Positions 1-37,841 of a stretch of 39,105 bases of DNA are shown here, one piece after another (within the stretch, counting starts at the first letter, position 1; each line of letters starts with the position of its first letter). The translations under genes and the position numbers were made by a program. The DNA comes from Patescibacteria group bacterium (GTDB lineage: Bacteria; Patescibacteriota; Patescibacteriia; UBA2196). The notes under the pieces were generated by a model. The model saw only the letters and a program-made list of their open reading frames with translations. It was not told where the DNA came from and searched no databases. The stretch is from the NCBI GenBank assembly GCA_043817345.1, contig JBDRGZ010000068.1:1-39105 (forward strand), given 5' to 3'.

Positions 1-264
1 CAAGAACTATTAGCTAATATACGGAAACAAGTTGTTTATAGTATATATAAGGTTGGTGGTTTATCCTCCTCCGTTCCCCAAAGTTCTATTGACACCACGG
101 CGGATAAACTTCAGTTTGCAGGCAATACAAGTTCAACAATAAAGGGTTTGCCCGCCGAAGCAAGAGGGTCGCCAGTGGCGAAGGCGGGTAAAACCAAAGT
201 TGGTCGGAATGACCCATGTCCATGTGGTTCAAACAAAAAGTATAAGAAATGTTGCGGGGCTTAA
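1..264 (+). CDS. secA: Preprotein translocase SecA, C-terminal fragment (5' end lies outside window)
   Basis: Frame 1 is open from nt 1 to TAA 262-264. It ends [22 protein letters not shown], the SEC-C zinc-binding tail. It is absent from the ORF track because it has no start codon in the window. Confidence 0.85.
61..108. repeat. Family-B unit inside secA (in frame, 16 codons)
   Basis: TTATCCTCCTCCG...CGGCGGATAAA encodes [16 protein letters not shown]. The frame is the same as in the tpiA copy. Confidence 0.7.
148..190. repeat. CCCGCC-type GC palindrome inside secA (in frame)
   Basis: TTGCCCGCC GAAGCAAGAGGG TCGCC AGT GGCGA A GGCGGGTAA encodes [14 protein letters not shown]. Confidence 0.6.
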
Positions 265-2331: not shown

Positions 2332-4053
2332 ATGAAAAAATTATCAATAAAAATAGTTGGACCAGCTGGGTTTGGTATTAAGGTTACAGGTATAACAATA
2401 GCTAAGGTATTTATGCGTTTAGGTTTAAATGTTTTTGCATATACAGAATACCCATCTTTAATTCGTGGAGGGCATAATACATATCAAATTGATCTATCTA
2501 AGGATAAGGTTCATTCTTCAAACCAGAAGTGTAATATTTTAATTGCTTTAACAAAAGAAGCTATTCAAAAAGAAAAAGAAAATATTGAACTAGGAGGTAT
2601 TGTTATCTGTGATAAATCAATTATTAATGAAGAAGATTTAAACCTAAGATCTATAAAAACCATAAAAGCTCCTTTGATAGAAAGTGCTAAATTTGCTGGA
2701 TCAGAGTTAATGAAAAATACAGTTGCTCTTGGAGTTTTGTTATCCCTTCTTGATCTATCTATTAAGAATTTAAATAATGTTTTAGCAGATATTTTTGCTA
2801 GTAAAAAAGAAGTGATTAAAGATAATAAAGTAGCGGCAAAAACAGGATATGATTGGATGGAACAATTTAAAAAGAAAGAGAATAGTGATTTTGATAAGTT
2901 AAGTAAAATAGTTTCTGTTTCTAAAAAAGGAAGTAATAATGTATTAATGACTGGTAATCAAGCTTGTGCAATGTCTGTGATAGCTTCTCAATGCCAAATG
3001 TATGTAGCTTATCCAATGACTCCTTCAACAGACATTTTACATATTCTTGAAGCTGAACAAAAAGAAACAGGAATGTTGATTCATCAACCAGAAGATGAGA
3101 TTTCTGGAATTCATGTAGCTTTAGGTTCTTCTTTTACAGGAGCTCGTTCAGCAGTAGGAACTTCTGGTGGAGGATTTGCTTTAATGAATGAGGGTTTTTC
3201 TTTAGCTGGGATGACAGAAACTCCTTTAGTTGTTTTTGAGGTTATGAGACCTGCTCCAGCTACAGGTAACCCTACTTGGTCAGATCAAGGTGATTTAGGA
3301 TATGTTGTTAATGCAGGACACGGTGAGTTTGCTAAAATTGTAATAACACCAGGAACACCAGAACAATCTTTTAATTTAGTACAGCATGCTTTTAATTTAG
3401 CAGATAAATATCAAACCCCTGTAGTAATATTATCAGACAAACATTTAGGAGAGTCTAGCTTTACAGTTAGTAAAGAGGTGTTTAATGAAGTAGATAAAAT
3501 AGATAGAGGAAAGATTGTAAAATCTGTTAAACAAGCACAAGAAATATTTATGCGTTACAAAGTAGAAAAAGATGGAATTTCAGCAAGAACAATTCCTGGA
3601 ATACAAAATGGAGAACATATTGCTAATTCAGATGAACATGACGAATATGGATATTCAGATGAATCAAGCAAAGTTAGAATCCAACAAATGGACAAAAGAA
3701 TGAAAAAATTAGATGAGATTAAAAAAGATATTCCTTTACCAAAAGTTTATGGTCCAAAAATTGCTTCAAAAACATTAGTTTGTTGGGGATCTAGTTTTGG
3801 AGCATGTAAGGACACTGTTGATAATAATAAGGATATTAATTTAATAAATTTTGAATATGTTTATCCAATGCCAAATAATTTAGATAAATTTTTAAAGAAA
3901 TTTAGGAAATTAATTTTAGTTGAACAAAATAAGACAGGACAGTTAGGAAAACTAATTAGACAAGAAACAGGTATTCAAATTAAAGATAAAATATTAAAAT
4001 ATGATTCAAGGCCTTTTTGGAGTGATGAGGTTTTGTCTTTATTGTCATCCTGA
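2332..4053 (+). CDS. 2-oxoacid:ferredoxin oxidoreductase, fused gamma-alpha subunit
   Basis: The N-terminal gamma-like domain has GPAGFGIKVTG...GGHNTYQI. The alpha domain has GNQACAMSVIASQCQMYVAYPMTPSTDIL and GTSGGGFALM. The stop codon TGA (4051-4053) lies inside repeat element 4043-4206. Confidence 0.85.
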   Translation: MKKLSIKIVGPAGFGIKVTGITIAKVFMRLGLNVFAYTEYPSLIRGGHNTYQIDLSKDKVHSSNQKCNILIALTKEAIQKEKENIELGGIVICDKSIINEEDLNLRSIKTIKAPLIESAKFAGSELMKNTVALGVLLSLLDLSIKNLNNVLADIFASKKEVIKDNKVAAKTGYDWMEQFKKKENSDFDKLSKIVSVSKKGSNNVLMTGNQACAMSVIASQCQMYVAYPMTPSTDILHILEAEQKETGMLIHQPEDEISGIHVALGSSFTGARSAVGTSGGGFALMNEGFSLAGMTETPLVVFEVMRPAPATGNPTWSDQGDLGYVVNAGHGEFAKIVITPGTPEQSFNLVQHAFNLADKYQTPVVILSDKHLGESSFTVSKEVFNEVDKIDRGKIVKSVKQAQEIFMRYKVEKDGISARTIPGIQNGEHIANSDEHDEYGYSDESSKVRIQQMDKRMKKLDEIKKDIPLPKVYGPKIASKTLVCWGSSFGACKDTVDNNKDINLINFEYVYPMPNNLDKFLKKFRKLILVEQNKTGQLGKLIRQETGIQIKDKILKYDSRPFWSDEVLSLLSS

Positions 4054-4206
4054 GCGACTTTTAAGGTTGTTAGGAGCCGAAGGATCTCATGTACACATTT
4101 TTCTAAATAGAATAATGAAACATAACTAGTATATTTTAATTCTTCTACACTTTAAAAATAAAAATTAAACAGATTCTTCTCCCGCTATCGCGGGATCAGA
4201 ATGACA
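4043..4206. repeat. Family-A composite palindromic element (two hairpin arms plus spacer)
   Basis: Left arm: TGTCATCCTGAGCGACTTTTAAGGTTGTTAGGAGCCGAAGGATCT. Right arm: CAGATTCTTCTCCCGCTATCGCGGGATCAGAATGACA. The termini are inverted (TGTCATCCTGA / TCAGAATGACA). Confidence 0.8.
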
Positions 4207-5059: not shown

Positions 5060-6800
5060 AAGGTGGTTATTAAAACCTAAATATCCGCAAGAATTTGCAG
5101 AAAAATTACCGGGCTATAATCCGGTAATTTTGCAATTACTTTATGATCGTGGTTTAGACACACATAAAAAAGTAGATGAGTTTTTAAATCCTGACTATAC
5201 TCAAGACATTTATGATCCTTTTTTGTTTAATGAAATGCAGAAAGCTGTTGATAGAATCAACAAAGCAGTTAAGAATGATGAAAAGATTTTAGTTTACGGA
5301 GACTATGATGCTGATGGTGTTACTTCTACTACACTTTTAGTAAAAACATTAGAAAAAATTAATGCAAAAAATATTGAAATACATATTCCGCATAGGCATT
5401 TGGATGGTTATGGAATGAATAAACAGGCGGTTCAAAACTTTGTTGATAATGGTATAAAATTAGTTATTACTGTTGATTGTGGAATAACAAATATTGAACA
5501 GATAGAATTATTAAAACAAAATAATATTGACACAATTGTTACAGATCACCATTTACAAGCAAAAGAATTACCAGATGCTTTTGCAATTATTAATCCATCA
5601 GTAGAAACAGAAAAATATCCTTTTAAAAAATTAGCTGGAGTAGGGGTTGCTTTTAAATTAGCTCAAGCTCTTTTTAAATCACAGAATGATTCAGAAGATT
5701 ACGAAGCTTTTGAAAAATGGCTTTTAGATGTAGTTACAATTGGGACGATTGGTGATGTAGCTCCCATTTTAGGTGAAAACAGAACTTTGGTTAAATATGG
5801 TTTAATGGTTTTAAATAAAACACCACGCAAAGGTCTAAGAGAATTAATTAGAGTTAGTTCTTTGTCTAATGGGCATGATCCAAGTCAGGAAATTCCTTTA
5901 GGTGAAGATATTTATGAATTAAATGTTAGAAATGTAGCTTGGCAGATTGTGCCACGCATAAATGCAGCTGGTAGAATAGATCATGCCAATTTAGCATACA
6001 CTTTATTAACCACAGAAGATGAAATGGAGGCAGTTGCTTTAGCACAAGATATACATCAAAAAAATTTAGAACGACAGAAAATAGCTGAAACTATGTTAAC
6101 TGAGGCAGAAGAATTAATTGGTAAAGTAACAGATGAAGATAAAATTTTAATTATTGCTAAAGAAGGCTGGCTAGAAGGTATAGTTGGTTTAGTTGCAGGG
6201 AAATTAAAAGATAGATATAACAGACCAATAATATTATTAAATAAAGATGGAGAAAACTATTCTGGTTCAGGTAGAAGTATTTCAGAATTTAATATTACAG
6301 AGGCTTTACAAGAATGTAGTGAATTGCTAGACAGATTTGGTGGACATGCTCAAGCCTGTGGTTTAGGTTTAACTGGAGAAAAGAATTTTAACGGGCTTAA
6401 GGATAAAATTAAATCAATTGCTAATGAAAAGTTAAAAGGTATTGAACTTGTACCAACAATAGAAATTGATGTAGAATTAAAAATGGAGGATTTAAATTGG
6501 GATCTTTGGGATGAAATAGAAAAATTTGAGCCTTTTGCAGAAGCTAACCCATTACCTTTATTTTTAATTAAAAATGTTAAGATAGAAGAAATGGATATAA
6601 TTGGAAAAAATAATAATACATTAAGATTTCAATTGTCTCAGAATAATGAAAAACAAAAAGCAATATCTTTTGGAAAAGTAGAGGAGTGGGGTGATAAAAT
6701 TAAGGTAGGGGATAATATAGATGTTGTTGTCGAGTTTGGTGTGAATGAATGGAATGGAAATAGGGAATTACAATTTAAAATTATTGATTGGAAGAAGTAG
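5046..6800 (+). CDS. recJ: Single-stranded-DNA-specific exonuclease RecJ
   Basis: DHH family motifs: YGDYDADGVTS, VDCGI, VTDHH, GGHAQACG. Confidence 0.9.
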   Translation: MSMSKRWLLKPKYPQEFAEKLPGYNPVILQLLYDRGLDTHKKVDEFLNPDYTQDIYDPFLFNEMQKAVDRINKAVKNDEKILVYGDYDADGVTSTTLLVKTLEKINAKNIEIHIPHRHLDGYGMNKQAVQNFVDNGIKLVITVDCGITNIEQIELLKQNNIDTIVTDHHLQAKELPDAFAIINPSVETEKYPFKKLAGVGVAFKLAQALFKSQNDSEDYEAFEKWLLDVVTIGTIGDVAPILGENRTLVKYGLMVLNKTPRKGLRELIRVSSLSNGHDPSQEIPLGEDIYELNVRNVAWQIVPRINAAGRIDHANLAYTLLTTEDEMEAVALAQDIHQKNLERQKIAETMLTEAEELIGKVTDEDKILIIAKEGWLEGIVGLVAGKLKDRYNRPIILLNKDGENYSGSGRSISEFNITEALQECSELLDRFGGHAQACGLGLTGEKNFNGLKDKIKSIANEKLKGIELVPTIEIDVELKMEDLNWDLWDEIEKFEPFAEANPLPLFLIKNVKIEEMDIIGKNNNTLRFQLSQNNEKQKAISFGKVEEWGDKIKVGDNIDVVVEFGVNEWNGNRELQFKIIDWKK

Positions 6801-6903
6801 TCATCCTGAGGAGGAGTCCCGATAGGGTGACGACGAAGGATCTGTTATAAAAATTACACAGATTCTTCGCTTTTAGTGACTATAAAAGTCGCTCAGAATG
6901 ACA
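6799..6903. repeat. Family-A composite palindromic element
   Basis: (A)GTCATCCTGAGGAGGAGTCCCGATAGGGTGACGACGAAGGATCTG, 14-nt spacer, then CAGATTCTTCGCTTTTAGTGACTATAAAAGTCGCTCAGAATGACA. It fills the recJ-rnhA gap. Confidence 0.85.
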
Positions 6904-6905
6904 TT

Positions 6906-7310
6906 ATGATAGAAAAAGTAATAATATATACAGATGGTGGTGCGCGTGGCAATCCTGGTCCTGCAGGTATTGGTGCTGTAATTTTTAATGAAAAAAAAGA
7001 TATTGTAGGACAATACAAAAAATATATTGGTGAAACCACAAATAATCAGGCTGAATATAGGGCAGTAGTGTTAGGTTTGGAAAAAGCTAAAGAATTACAA
7101 GCAGAAGAAGTTGAAGTTAATTTAGATTCAGAATTGGTGTGTTCTCAAATTAATGGGGTATATAAGCTAAAAAATAAAGACTTTCAGGATAGCTTTATTA
7201 AAATCTATAACCTAAAACAGTCATTTAAAAAAATAAAATTTAAACATATTCCTAGAGAAAAGAACAAATTAGCTGATAGTTTAGCAAATCAAGCCATGGA
7301 TGCTACTTGA
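6906..7310 (+). CDS. rnhA: Ribonuclease HI
   Basis: MIEKVIIYTDGGARGNPGPAGIGAVI...NNQAEYRAV...DSELV...REKNKLADSLAN. Start moved to ATG 6906, because track residues 1-10 (MTIKVAQNDI) are encoded by the repeat. Confidence 0.85.
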   Translation: MIEKVIIYTDGGARGNPGPAGIGAVIFNEKKDIVGQYKKYIGETTNNQAEYRAVVLGLEKAKELQAEEVEVNLDSELVCSQINGVYKLKNKDFQDSFIKIYNLKQSFKKIKFKHIPREKNKLADSLANQAMDAT

Positions 7311-7448
7311 TCCTCCTTCGCTCACTAACGAATATTTATTGCTATGGCGGACAAGCATATTATTCTTTTTAAATAAAATTTTATTTAAAAAGTATTTAAA
7401 ATTTATCCGCCGTAGTCCAATAGGGTTTTAAGGGCGAAGGAGGATAAA
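7308..7448. repeat. Family-B units in inverted orientation flanking a perfect AT palindrome
   Basis: 7308-7355: TGATCCTCCTTCGC...ATGGCGGACAAG. 7365-7392: perfect 14+14 palindrome CTTTTTAAATAAAA/TTTTATTTAAAAAG. 7402-7448: TTTATCCGCCG...GGCGAAGGAGGATAAA. ATCCTCCTTCGC and GCGAAGGAGGAT are exact reverse complements. Confidence 0.8.
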
Positions 7449-7453
7449 CATAA

Positions 7454-7480
7454 TTAGCACTCTTGACACGAGAGTGCTAA
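7454..7480. promoter_or_regulatory. CIRCE operator (HrcA binding site)
   Basis: TTAGCACTC-N9-GAGTGCTAA is a perfect match to the CIRCE consensus, upstream of hrcA. Confidence 0.92.
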
Positions 7481-7492
7481 TTTTTGTATAAT
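7463..7492 (+). promoter_or_regulatory. Promoter of the hrcA-grpE operon, overlapping CIRCE
   Basis: TTGACA (7463-7468) sits in the CIRCE spacer. After an 18-nt spacer comes the extended -10 TGTATAAT (7485-7492). Confidence 0.65.
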
Positions 7493-11851: not shown

Positions 11852-11926
11852 GTTCCGAACTTTTAAGGTCGTTGGCCCGCCCGCAACGCCTGAGCAGCTA
11901 GCGATGGCGGGCGGGGAGTTCGGGAC
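11852..11926. repeat. GC-rich long palindromic element (CCCGCC type) downstream of dnaK
   Basis: The outer stem GTTCCGAAC/GTTCGGGAC has one mismatch; the inner stem CCCGCCCGC/GCGGGCGGG is perfect. It contains the ACTTTTAAGGTCG module also present in family-A copies. Confidence 0.75.
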
Positions 11927-17864: not shown

Positions 17865-19313
17865 ATGTCAACCTTCTTAAACAAAAACATATTTAAACTA
17901 ACTTTTCTGTTTGTAATTTTAACAGAGCTTTTTTCGTTTTTTGGCTGGTTATTACCAGAATTTGGGTATTTGTGTTTCTTTGCAATAATGCTTTTAACTT
18001 TAGTTTTAAGTATAAAAAGGCTTGAATATGGAATATATATTCTTTTAGCAGAGTTGTTCATTGGTTCTAAAGGATATCTATTTAGTTTAGATATTGGAGA
18101 TTCTGCTATTTCTTTAAGAATGGGTTTGTTTTTGATTGTTATGGCTGTTTTTTTTATGAATGTCATCCTGAAAAGGAGGCCCGATAGGGCGACGATGAAG
18201 GATCTGTTTAATAAAAAATTAAAACAGATTCTTCGTCGCCACGAAGTGTCGTGGCTTCTCAGAATGACATCTTTATGGCTAGTAATAATATGGGGGTTTG
18301 TTTGGGGACTGATTCAGGGTAACAACTTTGGAAATGTATTTTTAGATTTTAATAATTGGGTATATTTCCTTTTAGTATTTCCAATTTTTCAAATTGTTAA
18401 GAACAATGATAATTTTGTTAAAAATATTTTATCTGTTTTAACAGCCTCTGTTGTATGGATAGGTATAAAATCCCTCGTCTTGCTATATATCTTCTCTCAT
18501 GAGCTCTCCTGGGCTTTGCCAGAGGCATATAAGTGGGTGAGAGACACTTTAGTAGGTGAAATAACTTTTGCAGGGAATGGATTTTGGAGGGTATTTATTC
18601 AATCCCAAGTATATAGTTTAATTTTGTTTTTTATCTTACTGGGCATTAAAGATATTAAAAGATTTTTCTTTCATCATATCTTGCTTTTAATATCTTTAAT
18701 CACAATCATATTAAGTTGGTCAAGAAGTTTTTGGGTTGGTTTGGTTGTTGGTGTTGGTATTTATCTAATATATCTAATTATTCAAAAAATAAAGTTTTTG
18801 AGTTTTTTAAAGATTTCTGGTAAGTTAATACTTATTACCCTAATATCTTTTGGTTTGATTCTCTGCGTCATATATTTACCTCCAAAAGCTGATATGGGTA
18901 ATTTAGCAGATATCTTTGGCAAGAGGTTAACTCAAGGTGAAGCTGCTTCATCTTCACGTATTAATCAATTAAAGCCTTTAATTAAAGAAATTGGTGAACA
19001 TCCAGTAATTGGTTCTGGTTTTGGAACAACTATTACATATTTATCTGATGATCCAAGGATTTTAGGGGACTATACAACATATGCTTTTGAGTGGGGATAT
19101 TTAGACATGATATTAAAATTTGGCATATTAGGTACTTTAATATATCTAATTTTAATATTTAAAATCTTGAAGAAGCTGTTTAATATAAACTTAGGATTTG
19201 CTTTAGCTTTGATCGCTTTGTTAATTGTTAATATATTCAGTCCATATTTAAATCATCCATTAGGAATTGGGTTTGTAATATTATGTAGCTCTATTGTTTA
19301 TGCAAAAGAATGA
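17865..19313 (+). CDS. O-antigen ligase/polymerase-like polytopic membrane protein carrying an in-frame repeat insertion
   Basis: About 10 TM segments with a WSRSFWVG motif (Wzy_C-like). Residues VILKRRPDRATMKDLFNKKLKQILRRHEVSWLLRMT are encoded by a family-A element. Confidence 0.65.
   Translation: MSTFLNKNIFKLTFLFVILTELFSFFGWLLPEFGYLCFFAIMLLTLVLSIKRLEYGIYILLAELFIGSKGYLFSLDIGDSAISLRMGLFLIVMAVFFMNVILKRRPDRATMKDLFNKKLKQILRRHEVSWLLRMTSLWLVIIWGFVWGLIQGNNFGNVFLDFNNWVYFLLVFPIFQIVKNNDNFVKNILSVLTASVVWIGIKSLVLLYIFSHELSWALPEAYKWVRDTLVGEITFAGNGFWRVFIQSQVYSLILFFILLGIKDIKRFFFHHILLLISLITIILSWSRSFWVGLVVGVGIYLIYLIIQKIKFLSFLKISGKLILITLISFGLILCVIYLPPKADMGNLADIFGKRLTQGEAASSSRINQLKPLIKEIGEHPVIGSGFGTTITYLSDDPRILGDYTTYAFEWGYLDMILKFGILGTLIYLILIFKILKKLFNINLGFALALIALLIVNIFSPYLNHPLGIGFVILCSSIVYAKE
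18161..18269. repeat. Family-A composite element inside a CDS (read through, no stop)
   Basis: TGTCATCCTGAAAAGGAGGCCCGATAGGGCGACGATGAAGGATCTG, spacer, then CAGATTCTTCGTCGCCACGAAGTGTCGTGGCTTCTCAGAATGACA. The architecture matches 6799-6903. Confidence 0.85.
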
Positions 19314-37691: not shown

Positions 37692-37841
37692 TGTCATCCT
37701 GAGCGACTTTTAAGGTCGCTAGGAGCCGAAGGATCTGTTTTTTTGTAAAAACTTTCTCTTTCTGTTATCCTGAACTTGTTTCAGGATAAAACAAATTAGA
37801 GAAATAAGAATGTTAAATCCCGAAATAAATTCGGGATGACA
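37692..37841. repeat. Family-A composite element (variant with three hairpins)
   Basis: TGTCATCCTGAGCGACTTTTAAGGTCGCTAGGAGCCGAAGGATCTG, then TTATCCTGAA-CTTGT-TTCAGGATAA (perfect 10-bp stem), then TCCCGAA-ATAAA-TTCGGGATGACA. The termini GTCATCC/GGATGAC are inverted. Confidence 0.8.

Follow-up and report, generated by a model that had tools for sequence, protein, structure and literature searches.

A GC-rich hairpin repeat family that probably spreads by copying within one family of Patescibacteria, filling intergenic gaps and adding peptides to housekeeping proteins

Three genes on a 39,105-nucleotide (nt) stretch of DNA from a Patescibacteria group bacterium, secA, rnhA and tpiA, carry copies of a palindromic repeat, here called family B, which appears to be a mobile but non-autonomous element. 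The stretch, referred to below as the window, comprises positions 1-39,105 of contig JBDRGZ010000068.1 (C68) in a metagenome-assembled genome of 707 kb, 78 contigs and 30.6% GC (GCA_043817345.1, hereafter G000). A sequence-only reading of the window had pointed to four units, at 61-108, 7308-7355, 7402-7448 (inverted) and 28619-28663, and had described them as much richer in GC than their surroundings. All four are present as read, with nhmmer E-values spanning 1e-9 to 1e-13 and a GC content of 44-51%, but a fifth, inverted unit in secA (146-193) had been missed.

The 3' end of secA (1..264, + strand) encodes the linker and the zinc-binding SEC-C motif of the protein (Pfam SEC-C, E = 1.4e-10) and is orthologous to a 923-residue frame in G001, a genome of the same genus. 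It hosts two units. The first, in the C-terminal linker (58..111, + strand; nhmmer E = 1e-9; covariance model (CM) score 50.7 bits), is translated in frame into 16 residues between G and L, and the second (146..193, - strand; GCCCGCC subtype; CM 55.2 bits, E = 1.4e-13), which is predicted to form a hairpin of -26.8 kcal/mol (z = -4.1), encodes 15 residues in frame. Neither peptide has a counterpart in the SecA of G001 or in that of G011, a genome from another genus of the same bacterial family.

At rnhA (RNase H; 6876..7310, + strand; Pfam RVT_3/RNase_H) the repeat supplies the end of the gene. As the earlier reading had it, the stop is the first codon of a unit: the open reading frame (ORF) 6876-7310 ends on that TGA, and the ACT TGA of the unit forms the last codon and the stop, while the rnhA of G001 ends ...MDEA* on native sequence. 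The left unit (7305..7357, + strand; nhmmer E = 1.3e-11) is followed by an AT-rich spacer (7358..7398), which from its sequence and the predicted fold would be the loop of a long hairpin, and then by an intergenic right unit on the opposite strand (7399..7449, - strand; nhmmer E = 1.2e-13; CM 63.8 bits), so that 7305-7449 is a single inverted doublet; the segment 7303-7451 has a predicted folding energy of -54.4 kcal/mol (z = -9.65). The whole doublet is missing at the orthologous site in G001. Directly after it, a 14-bp hairpin and T-run that overlap a perfect TTGACA-18-TATAAT promoter match (7452-7492) are kept in G001.

The tpiA gene (28538..29320, + strand; Pfam TIM E = 1.7e-79) contains a solo unit (28617..28666, + strand; nhmmer E = 1.4e-11; CM 54 bits) which is translated as KSASATNSFCATADK, residues 28-42 of the protein. 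The segment between NWKM and VVLCP, which had been suspected of being longer than usual, exceeds that of 17 aligned orthologues, with identities down to 36%, by 7 residues, and that of most relatives in the bacterial family by 6-8; the 7 extra columns of the alignment are occupied in the G000 protein only. In an AlphaFold model (AF2; mean pLDDT 89, pTM 0.89) residues 28-42 form the end of helix α1 (16-32) and a loop (34-39) with pLDDT < 50, which precedes strand β2 at 44-49. The insert is thus modelled as a disordered surface loop between α1 and β2, in agreement with the surface position after α1 that had been predicted for it. The α1-β2 loop lies on the face of the TIM barrel that points away from the active site. 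The proposal that the SecA and TpiA peptides are lineage-specific is borne out by their absence from G001 and G011 and, for TpiA, from all 17 orthologues; the same residues were also looked for in distant orthologues lacking the palindrome, and were not found. A second TpiA loop, which precedes the LGAQN strand, has inserts in two other genomes: in G011 a family-B unit in antisense orientation (KSLSAGAVKGSQGAKAEQ), and in G002 a small hairpin of unrelated sequence (GDSSPDFRRGQNDIR).

The units in the window belong to a dispersed family. A strict arm pattern retrieved 15 copies from G000, and the nhmmer profile seeded with these copies detects 42 units in the genome at E <= 0.04 (best E = 4e-15), while a search with the CM detects 44; a search of the window at the Rfam gathering thresholds returned tRNAs only. 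The basic unit, of about 50 nt, consists of the 5' arm (AAG)TTTATCC[G/T]CCT[T/C]CGC, a variable loop, the 3' arm CTACGGCGGA[T/C]AAACTT and a T-rich tail, with the consensus nTTTATCCGCCTTCGCC..CTAACAAC..CT.TT..GCTACGGCGGA(T/C)AAACTT, and its GC content across the genome is 44-62%. The mutual complementarity of the ends noted in the earlier reading is reflected in a pairing of the arms that is maintained by compensatory changes: at columns 7 and 49, 29 copies have U-A and 10 have C-G, and at columns 3 and 53 these two pairs occur in 19 and 10 copies, respectively. In the named arm pairing 76% of cells are paired, compared to 35-48% in slid controls. RNAalifold alone chose another register, TTCGCC with GGCGGA, a consequence of the imperfect tandem TCCGCC-TTCGCC that makes up the 5' arm. 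Conservation ends about 4 nt beyond the 5' arm and runs about 15 nt further past the 3' arm as the T-rich tail. The orientation of solo units relative to local GC skew shows no significant bias (7 vs 8 in G000, 32 vs 23 in G011), and a tie between orientation and the replication strand is not supported.

The 45-48-nt palindromic unit of the sequence-only reading is real but is only half of the usual element. In its common form the element is an inverted doublet, 116-146 nt long, in which a + unit, an AT-rich spacer of 22-45 nt and a - unit are arranged tail to tail, with the side of the 3' arm and its T-rich tail facing inward. All 13 doublets in G000 have the order (+)(-) and none the order (-)(+); the corresponding ratio in G011 is 24:1 (p = 3e-10 for the two genomes combined). 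The whole doublet is predicted to be able to fold as a single long hairpin, and at least two of the apparently solo units in G000 are followed downstream by a decayed partner.

Two observations concern individual doublets. At C41:1024-1470 in G000, two doublets that are 96% identical lie 193 nt apart, each abutting a minus-strand start codon, and from their sequences the pair looks like a local duplication of a doublet together with a short ORF. In G011, many doublets contain a nested mini hairpin of 22 nt, TTCCTGCCTGTCGGCAGACAGG, which separates their spacer from their - unit (for example at C3:15240-15350 and C1:14450-14560).

The distribution of the family among relatives is patchy. Compared to the 44 CM copies in G000, there are 127 in the 0.72 Mb of G011, 29 in G006, 18 in G008, 17 in G012, 10 in G007 and 5 in G009, all of the same bacterial family; G001 and G007 are congeners of G000, and G001 has a single copy. 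Outside this family, the order and class yield 0-3 weak matches, except for 8 weak matches in G035. The near-empty genome of G001 makes it possible to compare filled with empty sites directly. For 24 of 29 elements in G000, the two 400-nt flanks map side by side to a single G001 contig, where 0-31 nt separate them. The unit-coded peptide is missing from G001 in every one of the 12 intragenic host proteins, whose names are taken from Pfam (SecA, TpiA, YebC, LepA, a NuoF-like protein, a MiaB-like protein, a GT1 glycosyltransferase, Pth, ribosomal protein L23, RecG, SerRS and a membrane protein on C14), and the Adk of G001 lacks the element-coded C-terminal tail. G011, in which the C14 protein has no orthologue, lacks the peptide in 9 of the 11 hosts that can be compared. 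YebC is the cleanest case, with 14 additional residues relative to G001 that result from a 42-nt insertion between intact flanks, while LepA has received a whole doublet and with it about 37 residues. No target motif was found at the empty sites in G001, and no target-site duplication is visible between filled and empty sites, although at a flank identity of about 85% duplications of 2-3 nt in AT-rich DNA could be missed. At many filled sites 3-30 nt of native sequence have gone. Among the 80 contigs listed by a metagenome scan, about 6 score above 40 bits, as true members do, and the rest are GC-rich chance matches. A loose pattern found nothing in viral contigs beyond chance matches, the highest CM score being 28 bits, and the two stretches that fit the strict pattern were that same 28-bit match and one below threshold, so the search did not indicate phage carriage.

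Intragenic copies are a minority. In G000, 14 of the 42 units (15 if one at a contig edge is included) lie inside 12 host genes, two further units overlap the stop codons of rnhA and adk, and about two thirds are intergenic. Since the coding fraction of the genome is at least 77%, units are depleted from coding DNA; the automatic intragenic count on which the test is based, 13 of 42 (p = 5e-10), wrongly includes C16:545 and misses both secA units. The host frame is open at every intragenic copy in G000. According to tallies that rest on the translated peptides, the frame TCC GCC ... ACG GCG GAT AAA, quoted in the earlier reading, is used by four sense copies (…S(A/S)(F/S)A…T(A/T)ADK, in secA, tpiA and the genes for the NuoF-like and MiaB-like proteins), while one sense copy reads YPPS…LRRIN (LepA) and one IRLRS…YGGQAS (Pth). 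Antisense copies read either SLSAEA…AK.DK (the second secA unit, GT1 and RecG) or RRS…GEGG (YebC, the C14 protein, L23, SerRS and the second LepA unit). In G011, which has at least 33 validated intragenic units, sense copies use these three frames 13, 5 and 2 times, respectively, and the sixth frame appears in one copy, so that five reading frames are in use in G000 and six when G011 is added.

The quoted frame therefore accounts for 17 of the 26 sense intragenic units in the two genomes (p = 8e-4 against an expectation of one third; 17 vs 6 against the other stop-free frame, p = 0.035), a bias that probably arises because this frame yields a small polar peptide. The bias is a preference, not a rule. 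The earlier proposal that the element is kept only when it is in frame is thus right in that frames are open at all intragenic copies and one frame is favoured, but not in its exclusiveness, since about two thirds of the copies are intergenic and six frames are used.

Intergenic doublets replace the whole stop-to-start gap. Their left end abuts or supplies the upstream stop (ACT TGA in rnhA, CTC TAG in adk), and their right end lies 9-10 nt before the next ATG. When all units are considered, the 5' arm lies 8-16 nt (peak 9-10) from an ATG that opens an ORF of 80 or more residues in 9 of 42 units in G000 and 35 of 115 in G011, while the 3' arm does so in one unit in each genome (5' vs 3', p = 3e-11). 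Most of the start-adjacent units in G011 that appear to be solo are doublets with a diverged + subtype missed by the CM. In G001, tandem genes are separated by native gaps of only 0-10 nt and divergent genes by gaps of about 10-30 nt, and because these gaps are so small, any intergenic insertion that survives must adjoin a start. Moreover, both outer ends of a doublet are 5' arms by construction. We regard the start adjacency as mostly a survival filter.

The explanation that we favour, and consider likely, is that family B is a non-autonomous, hairpin-forming DNA repeat which has spread by copying within one Patescibacteria family and which persists where selection tolerates it. That single loops have received inserts more than once, as in SerRS, where 6 of 18 relatives have GC-rich inserts of different sequence, and in the second TpiA loop of G011 and G002, speaks in its favour. 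During copying, the arms would be recognized as a hairpin or palindrome, as is suggested by the compensatory changes which keep them paired, and the combination of no visible target duplication with a loss of 0-30 nt of native sequence would fit either an IS200/REP-like, hairpin-directed enzyme acting in trans or patching templated by repair. Between genes, selection would act as a filter through which a doublet passes when it fills the stop-to-start gap. Inside genes, where most copies are single units, survival would require that their length keeps the frame, that they contain no stop codon, and that the 14-17 residues they add are placed in a linker or in a surface loop of variable length; the frame giving a small, polar peptide rich in Ser, Ala and Thr (…SAFATNN..TADK) would be favoured.

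Several observations weigh against this explanation. The copies in G000 are old and diverged and give no evidence of recent movement: pairs of copies are on average 64% identical, and of 861 such pairs just 3 reach 90% or more. The net gain in length at some hosts is far below that of the unit (3 residues in SecA for two units, 2 in L23 and 7 in TpiA, with GT1 behaving likewise), and, judged from the alignments, several sites look more like replacement than pure insertion. That the 5' arm is so strictly positioned, 9-10 nt from starts, could reflect a function and not a survival filter alone. The inserts in RecG and SerRS are common to G000 and G011, while that in RecG is missing from G001 and that in SerRS from both G001 and G007, which would not fit the simple vertical inheritance of single insertions. 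The SerRS site, a loop xEDG between FW and LCL (after LPKFREDLFW), keeps its short, ancestral form in 12 of 18 relatives, G001 and G007 among them, and is occupied by GC-rich palindromic inserts of at least four different sequences in the other 6: family B in G000 and G011, and other sequences in G015 and G009, in G003 and in G019. The patterns at SerRS and RecG point to permissive loops that were hit repeatedly, to targeting of sites, or to precise loss of inserts.

To these points must be added the outcome of the search for a mobilizer. The transposase family Y1_Tnp/RAYT (PF01797) has no match at the cut-off in G000, G011, G006 or G008, which carry 44, 127, 29 and 18 copies; G000 has only a 15.7-bit fragment below the cut-off, while Y1_Tnp is present in several low- and zero-copy relatives. 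A RAYT/IS200-like transposase is therefore rejected as a correlate of copy number. Eleven ORFs are common to G000 and G011 and missing from G001, two of which encode nucleases, and neither tracks copy number among 20 relatives checked: YraN is nearly universal, and a small GIY-YIG nuclease occurs in genomes with 0-1 copies. No unit-ORF-unit arrangement that might represent a parent insertion sequence (IS) was noticed, in work which did not search for one systematically and in which the enzyme searches covered Y1_Tnp and the two nucleases. Several relatives have more than one copy of the small GIY-YIG family, and G001 has none; in G000 it comprises one intact, small stand-alone gene and two short fragments with in-frame stops (C62:8881-9192, C60:8967-9050 and C51:86-178).

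An alternative that we consider unlikely is that family B spreads not by transposition but by templated repair or gene conversion, in which a break or stalled fork in AT-rich DNA would be patched from another copy through short arm homology, so that native sequence would be replaced and the same sites hit repeatedly. The native sequence lost at many filled sites, the small net gains in SecA, L23, TpiA and GT1, the filling of the SerRS and RecG sites in two non-sister genomes, and the failure to find either a target duplication or a transposase are all in keeping with such a process, as is the resemblance of native SecA sequence (ACGGATGATAAA) to the arm ACGGCGGATAAA and of native SerRS sequence (GAAGATAAGTT) to GAAGG(A/C)GGATAAACTT. 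These resemblances are, however, short and may be fortuitous, the empty sites share no motif, the YebC site is a clean insertion with intact flanks, and at a flank identity of about 85% indels that followed insertion would account for the apparent replacements equally well.

A more far-reaching possibility, which must be called distinctly unlikely, is that the family is the substrate of an unrecognized hairpin-directed insertion/excision system with defined targets and precise restoration of the empty site, which would have placed a standard stop-to-start cassette before dozens of genes. If it existed, such a system would explain why SerRS and RecG have the same inserts in two genomes that are not sisters and whose congener G001 (for SerRS also G007) keeps the ancestral sequence, and it would account for the missing target duplications and the 44:2 rule by which the 5' arm, not the 3' arm, ends 9-10 nt before a start.

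The same positional rule is an argument for regarding the intergenic doublets as functional punctuation and the intragenic copies as their by-products, an explanation we consider improbable. In this view, the first hairpin and its T-tract would terminate transcription or stabilize the mRNA, and the second, at its fixed distance of 9-10 nt from the start, would serve as a leader or an insulator where initiation does not use a Shine-Dalgarno sequence. Besides the orientation of the arms towards ATG codons and the occupation of the entire stop-to-start gap, the conservation of the T-rich tail after the 3' arm speaks for this explanation, as does the fact that the start-adjacent arms in G000 are mostly GGCGGAGGCGGA, which includes GGAGG. 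Against it, the small native gaps and the construction of the doublet, described above, already force a 5' arm beside a start in any surviving intergenic insertion, and the same genes are presumably expressed in G001, where the elements are missing. A scan for terminators leaves the units uncalled, since they have loops longer than 8 nt.

A Shine-Dalgarno role for the outward-facing GGAGG/GGCGGA can be rejected as the main explanation, since the spacing is wrong and the use of such sites very low. Shine-Dalgarno 4-mers precede only 8% of long ORFs in G000 and 13% in G001, and the GGAGG of the element lies at -19 to -22, away from the weak peak at -10 to -13 in G001. The 3' tail of the 16S rRNA of G011 (C17:4242) ends in ...GGATTATCTCCTTT (CTCCTTT) instead of the usual GGATCACCTCCTTA and does not pair with GGCGG; the 16S 3' end was not found in the assemblies of G000 and G001.

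That the peptides are ancestral protein segments, or the repeats artefacts of assembly or binning, is already contradicted and has next to no probability: the presence of the RecG and SerRS inserts in G011 and the fragmentation of G000 into 78 contigs might be cited in its favour, but the peptides are missing from the congener and nearly all relatives, the same 50 nt or so are found on both strands at 42 loci that are unrelated to each other, the elements are internal to contigs and their flanks match the gene order of an independent assembly, and the family is found in six other independently assembled genomes (5-127 copies) and on metagenome contigs.

The mobile-repeat explanation places family B beside several known systems. 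Rickettsia palindromic elements (RPEs; Ogata et al. 2000 and 2002, as summarized in PMC10969869) occur in many copies, nearly half of them inside ORFs in frame and at positions compatible with the fold. Family B resembles them in being a palindromic family with dozens of copies in a small AT-rich genome, in being read in large part as an extra peptide in frame within unrelated housekeeping genes, and in the compatibility of its insertions with the fold, which for TpiA is indicated by the model and for other sites by alignments in which they are length-variable; for neither family is a transposase known. The families differ in the size of what is translated, mostly single units of 45-55 nt (14-17 residues) in family B against about 100-150 bp for RPEs, although the doublets measure 116-146 nt, in phylum, in the common occurrence of family B as an inverted doublet that fills intergenic gaps, and in its GC-richness on an AT-rich background. 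Because the host belongs to the Patescibacteria, family B is treated as an analogue of RPEs and not as a member, and in this sense the earlier description of it as an RPE-like family is apt, given its palindromes, lineage-specific peptides and TpiA surface loop.

The REP/BIME/REPIN elements, which are short, GC-rich, imperfect palindromes, occur in inverted doublets between the genes of operons and are extragenic by definition; in work attributed to Bertels and Rainey in 2011 and to Nunvar et al. in 2010, they are reportedly associated with RAYT transposases. Family B shares with them its GC-rich inverted doublets, the positions between genes in operons and the lack of an observed target duplication, and its doublet likewise seems to be the propagated unit. 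It differs in that its high-copy genomes have no Y1/RAYT match at the cut-off, in that about a third of its copies are intragenic and translated, and in its somewhat longer units.

The GC clusters of yeast mitochondria are GC-rich palindromes of 30-80 bp in a very AT-rich genome with lineage-specific copy number, mostly non-coding but also present in rps3/VAR1, where they change the size of the product, and their mechanism of spread is unknown (PMC4464245). Family B has the same combination of GC-rich palindromes in an AT-rich genome, non-coding and in-frame copies and patchy copy number, whereas the yeast clusters are organellar, unrelated in sequence and restricted to one protein gene, against a dozen housekeeping genes for family B; the match is a functional resemblance only, because the yeast family is mitochondrial by definition. 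Finally, the small mobile sequences and MITEs of enterobacteria are inverted-repeat elements, likewise non-autonomous, which now and then become fused in frame to ORFs of the host (PMC2759123, PMC3184786, PMC10969869). The family-B doublet, with its inverted units around a short AT-rich spacer, can also be viewed as having terminal inverted repeats. MITEs are, however, tied to IS families by their terminal repeats and target duplications, and their intragenic copies are the exception, while those of family B are common and neither a duplication nor a parent IS was found for it, the latter without a systematic search. By these comparisons family B is an analogue of RPEs, REPINs and yeast GC clusters and a member of none, and a full-text literature search found no description of such elements in Patescibacteria.

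Coding palindromes have so far been treated as a peculiarity of Rickettsia, and family B would be an independent, unrelated case in an ultra-small Patescibacteria genome. The proteins affected belong to the core machinery of the cell (SecA, TpiA, LepA, RecG, SerRS, ribosomal protein L23, Pth and MiaB), which suggests that selfish repeats of this hairpin kind can reshape essential proteins and almost all of the punctuation between genes in spite of extreme streamlining. For annotation, the implication is that lineage-specific loops and odd N- or C-termini in proteins of the candidate phyla radiation (CPR) may be derived from repeats. The range from the near-empty G001 to the saturated G011 provides a natural series in which the birth of new peptide segments can be followed, and the mechanism is of interest in its own right, because conserved, covarying arms are maintained without a known transposase.

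The window contains other repeats as well. A tRNA-Thr cassette (31104-31289) is flanked by CCTGCCCGCCATAGC and GCGATAGCAGGCGGG, and a palindrome after dnaK (11852-11926) has the arms GGCCCGCCCGCAACGCC and GCGATGGCGGGCGGG; both are similar to the GCCCGCC subtype of the second secA unit, and neither gives a match to the CM. A second two-arm repeat family, unrelated to family B, has the ends GTCATCCTGAG… and …CTCAGAATGAC. One copy of it, upstream of pth on C62, is missing at the orthologous site in G001, and the window holds copies at 4043-4206, 6799-6903, 18161-18269 and 37692-37841, the third of which lies inside the ORF 17865-19313.

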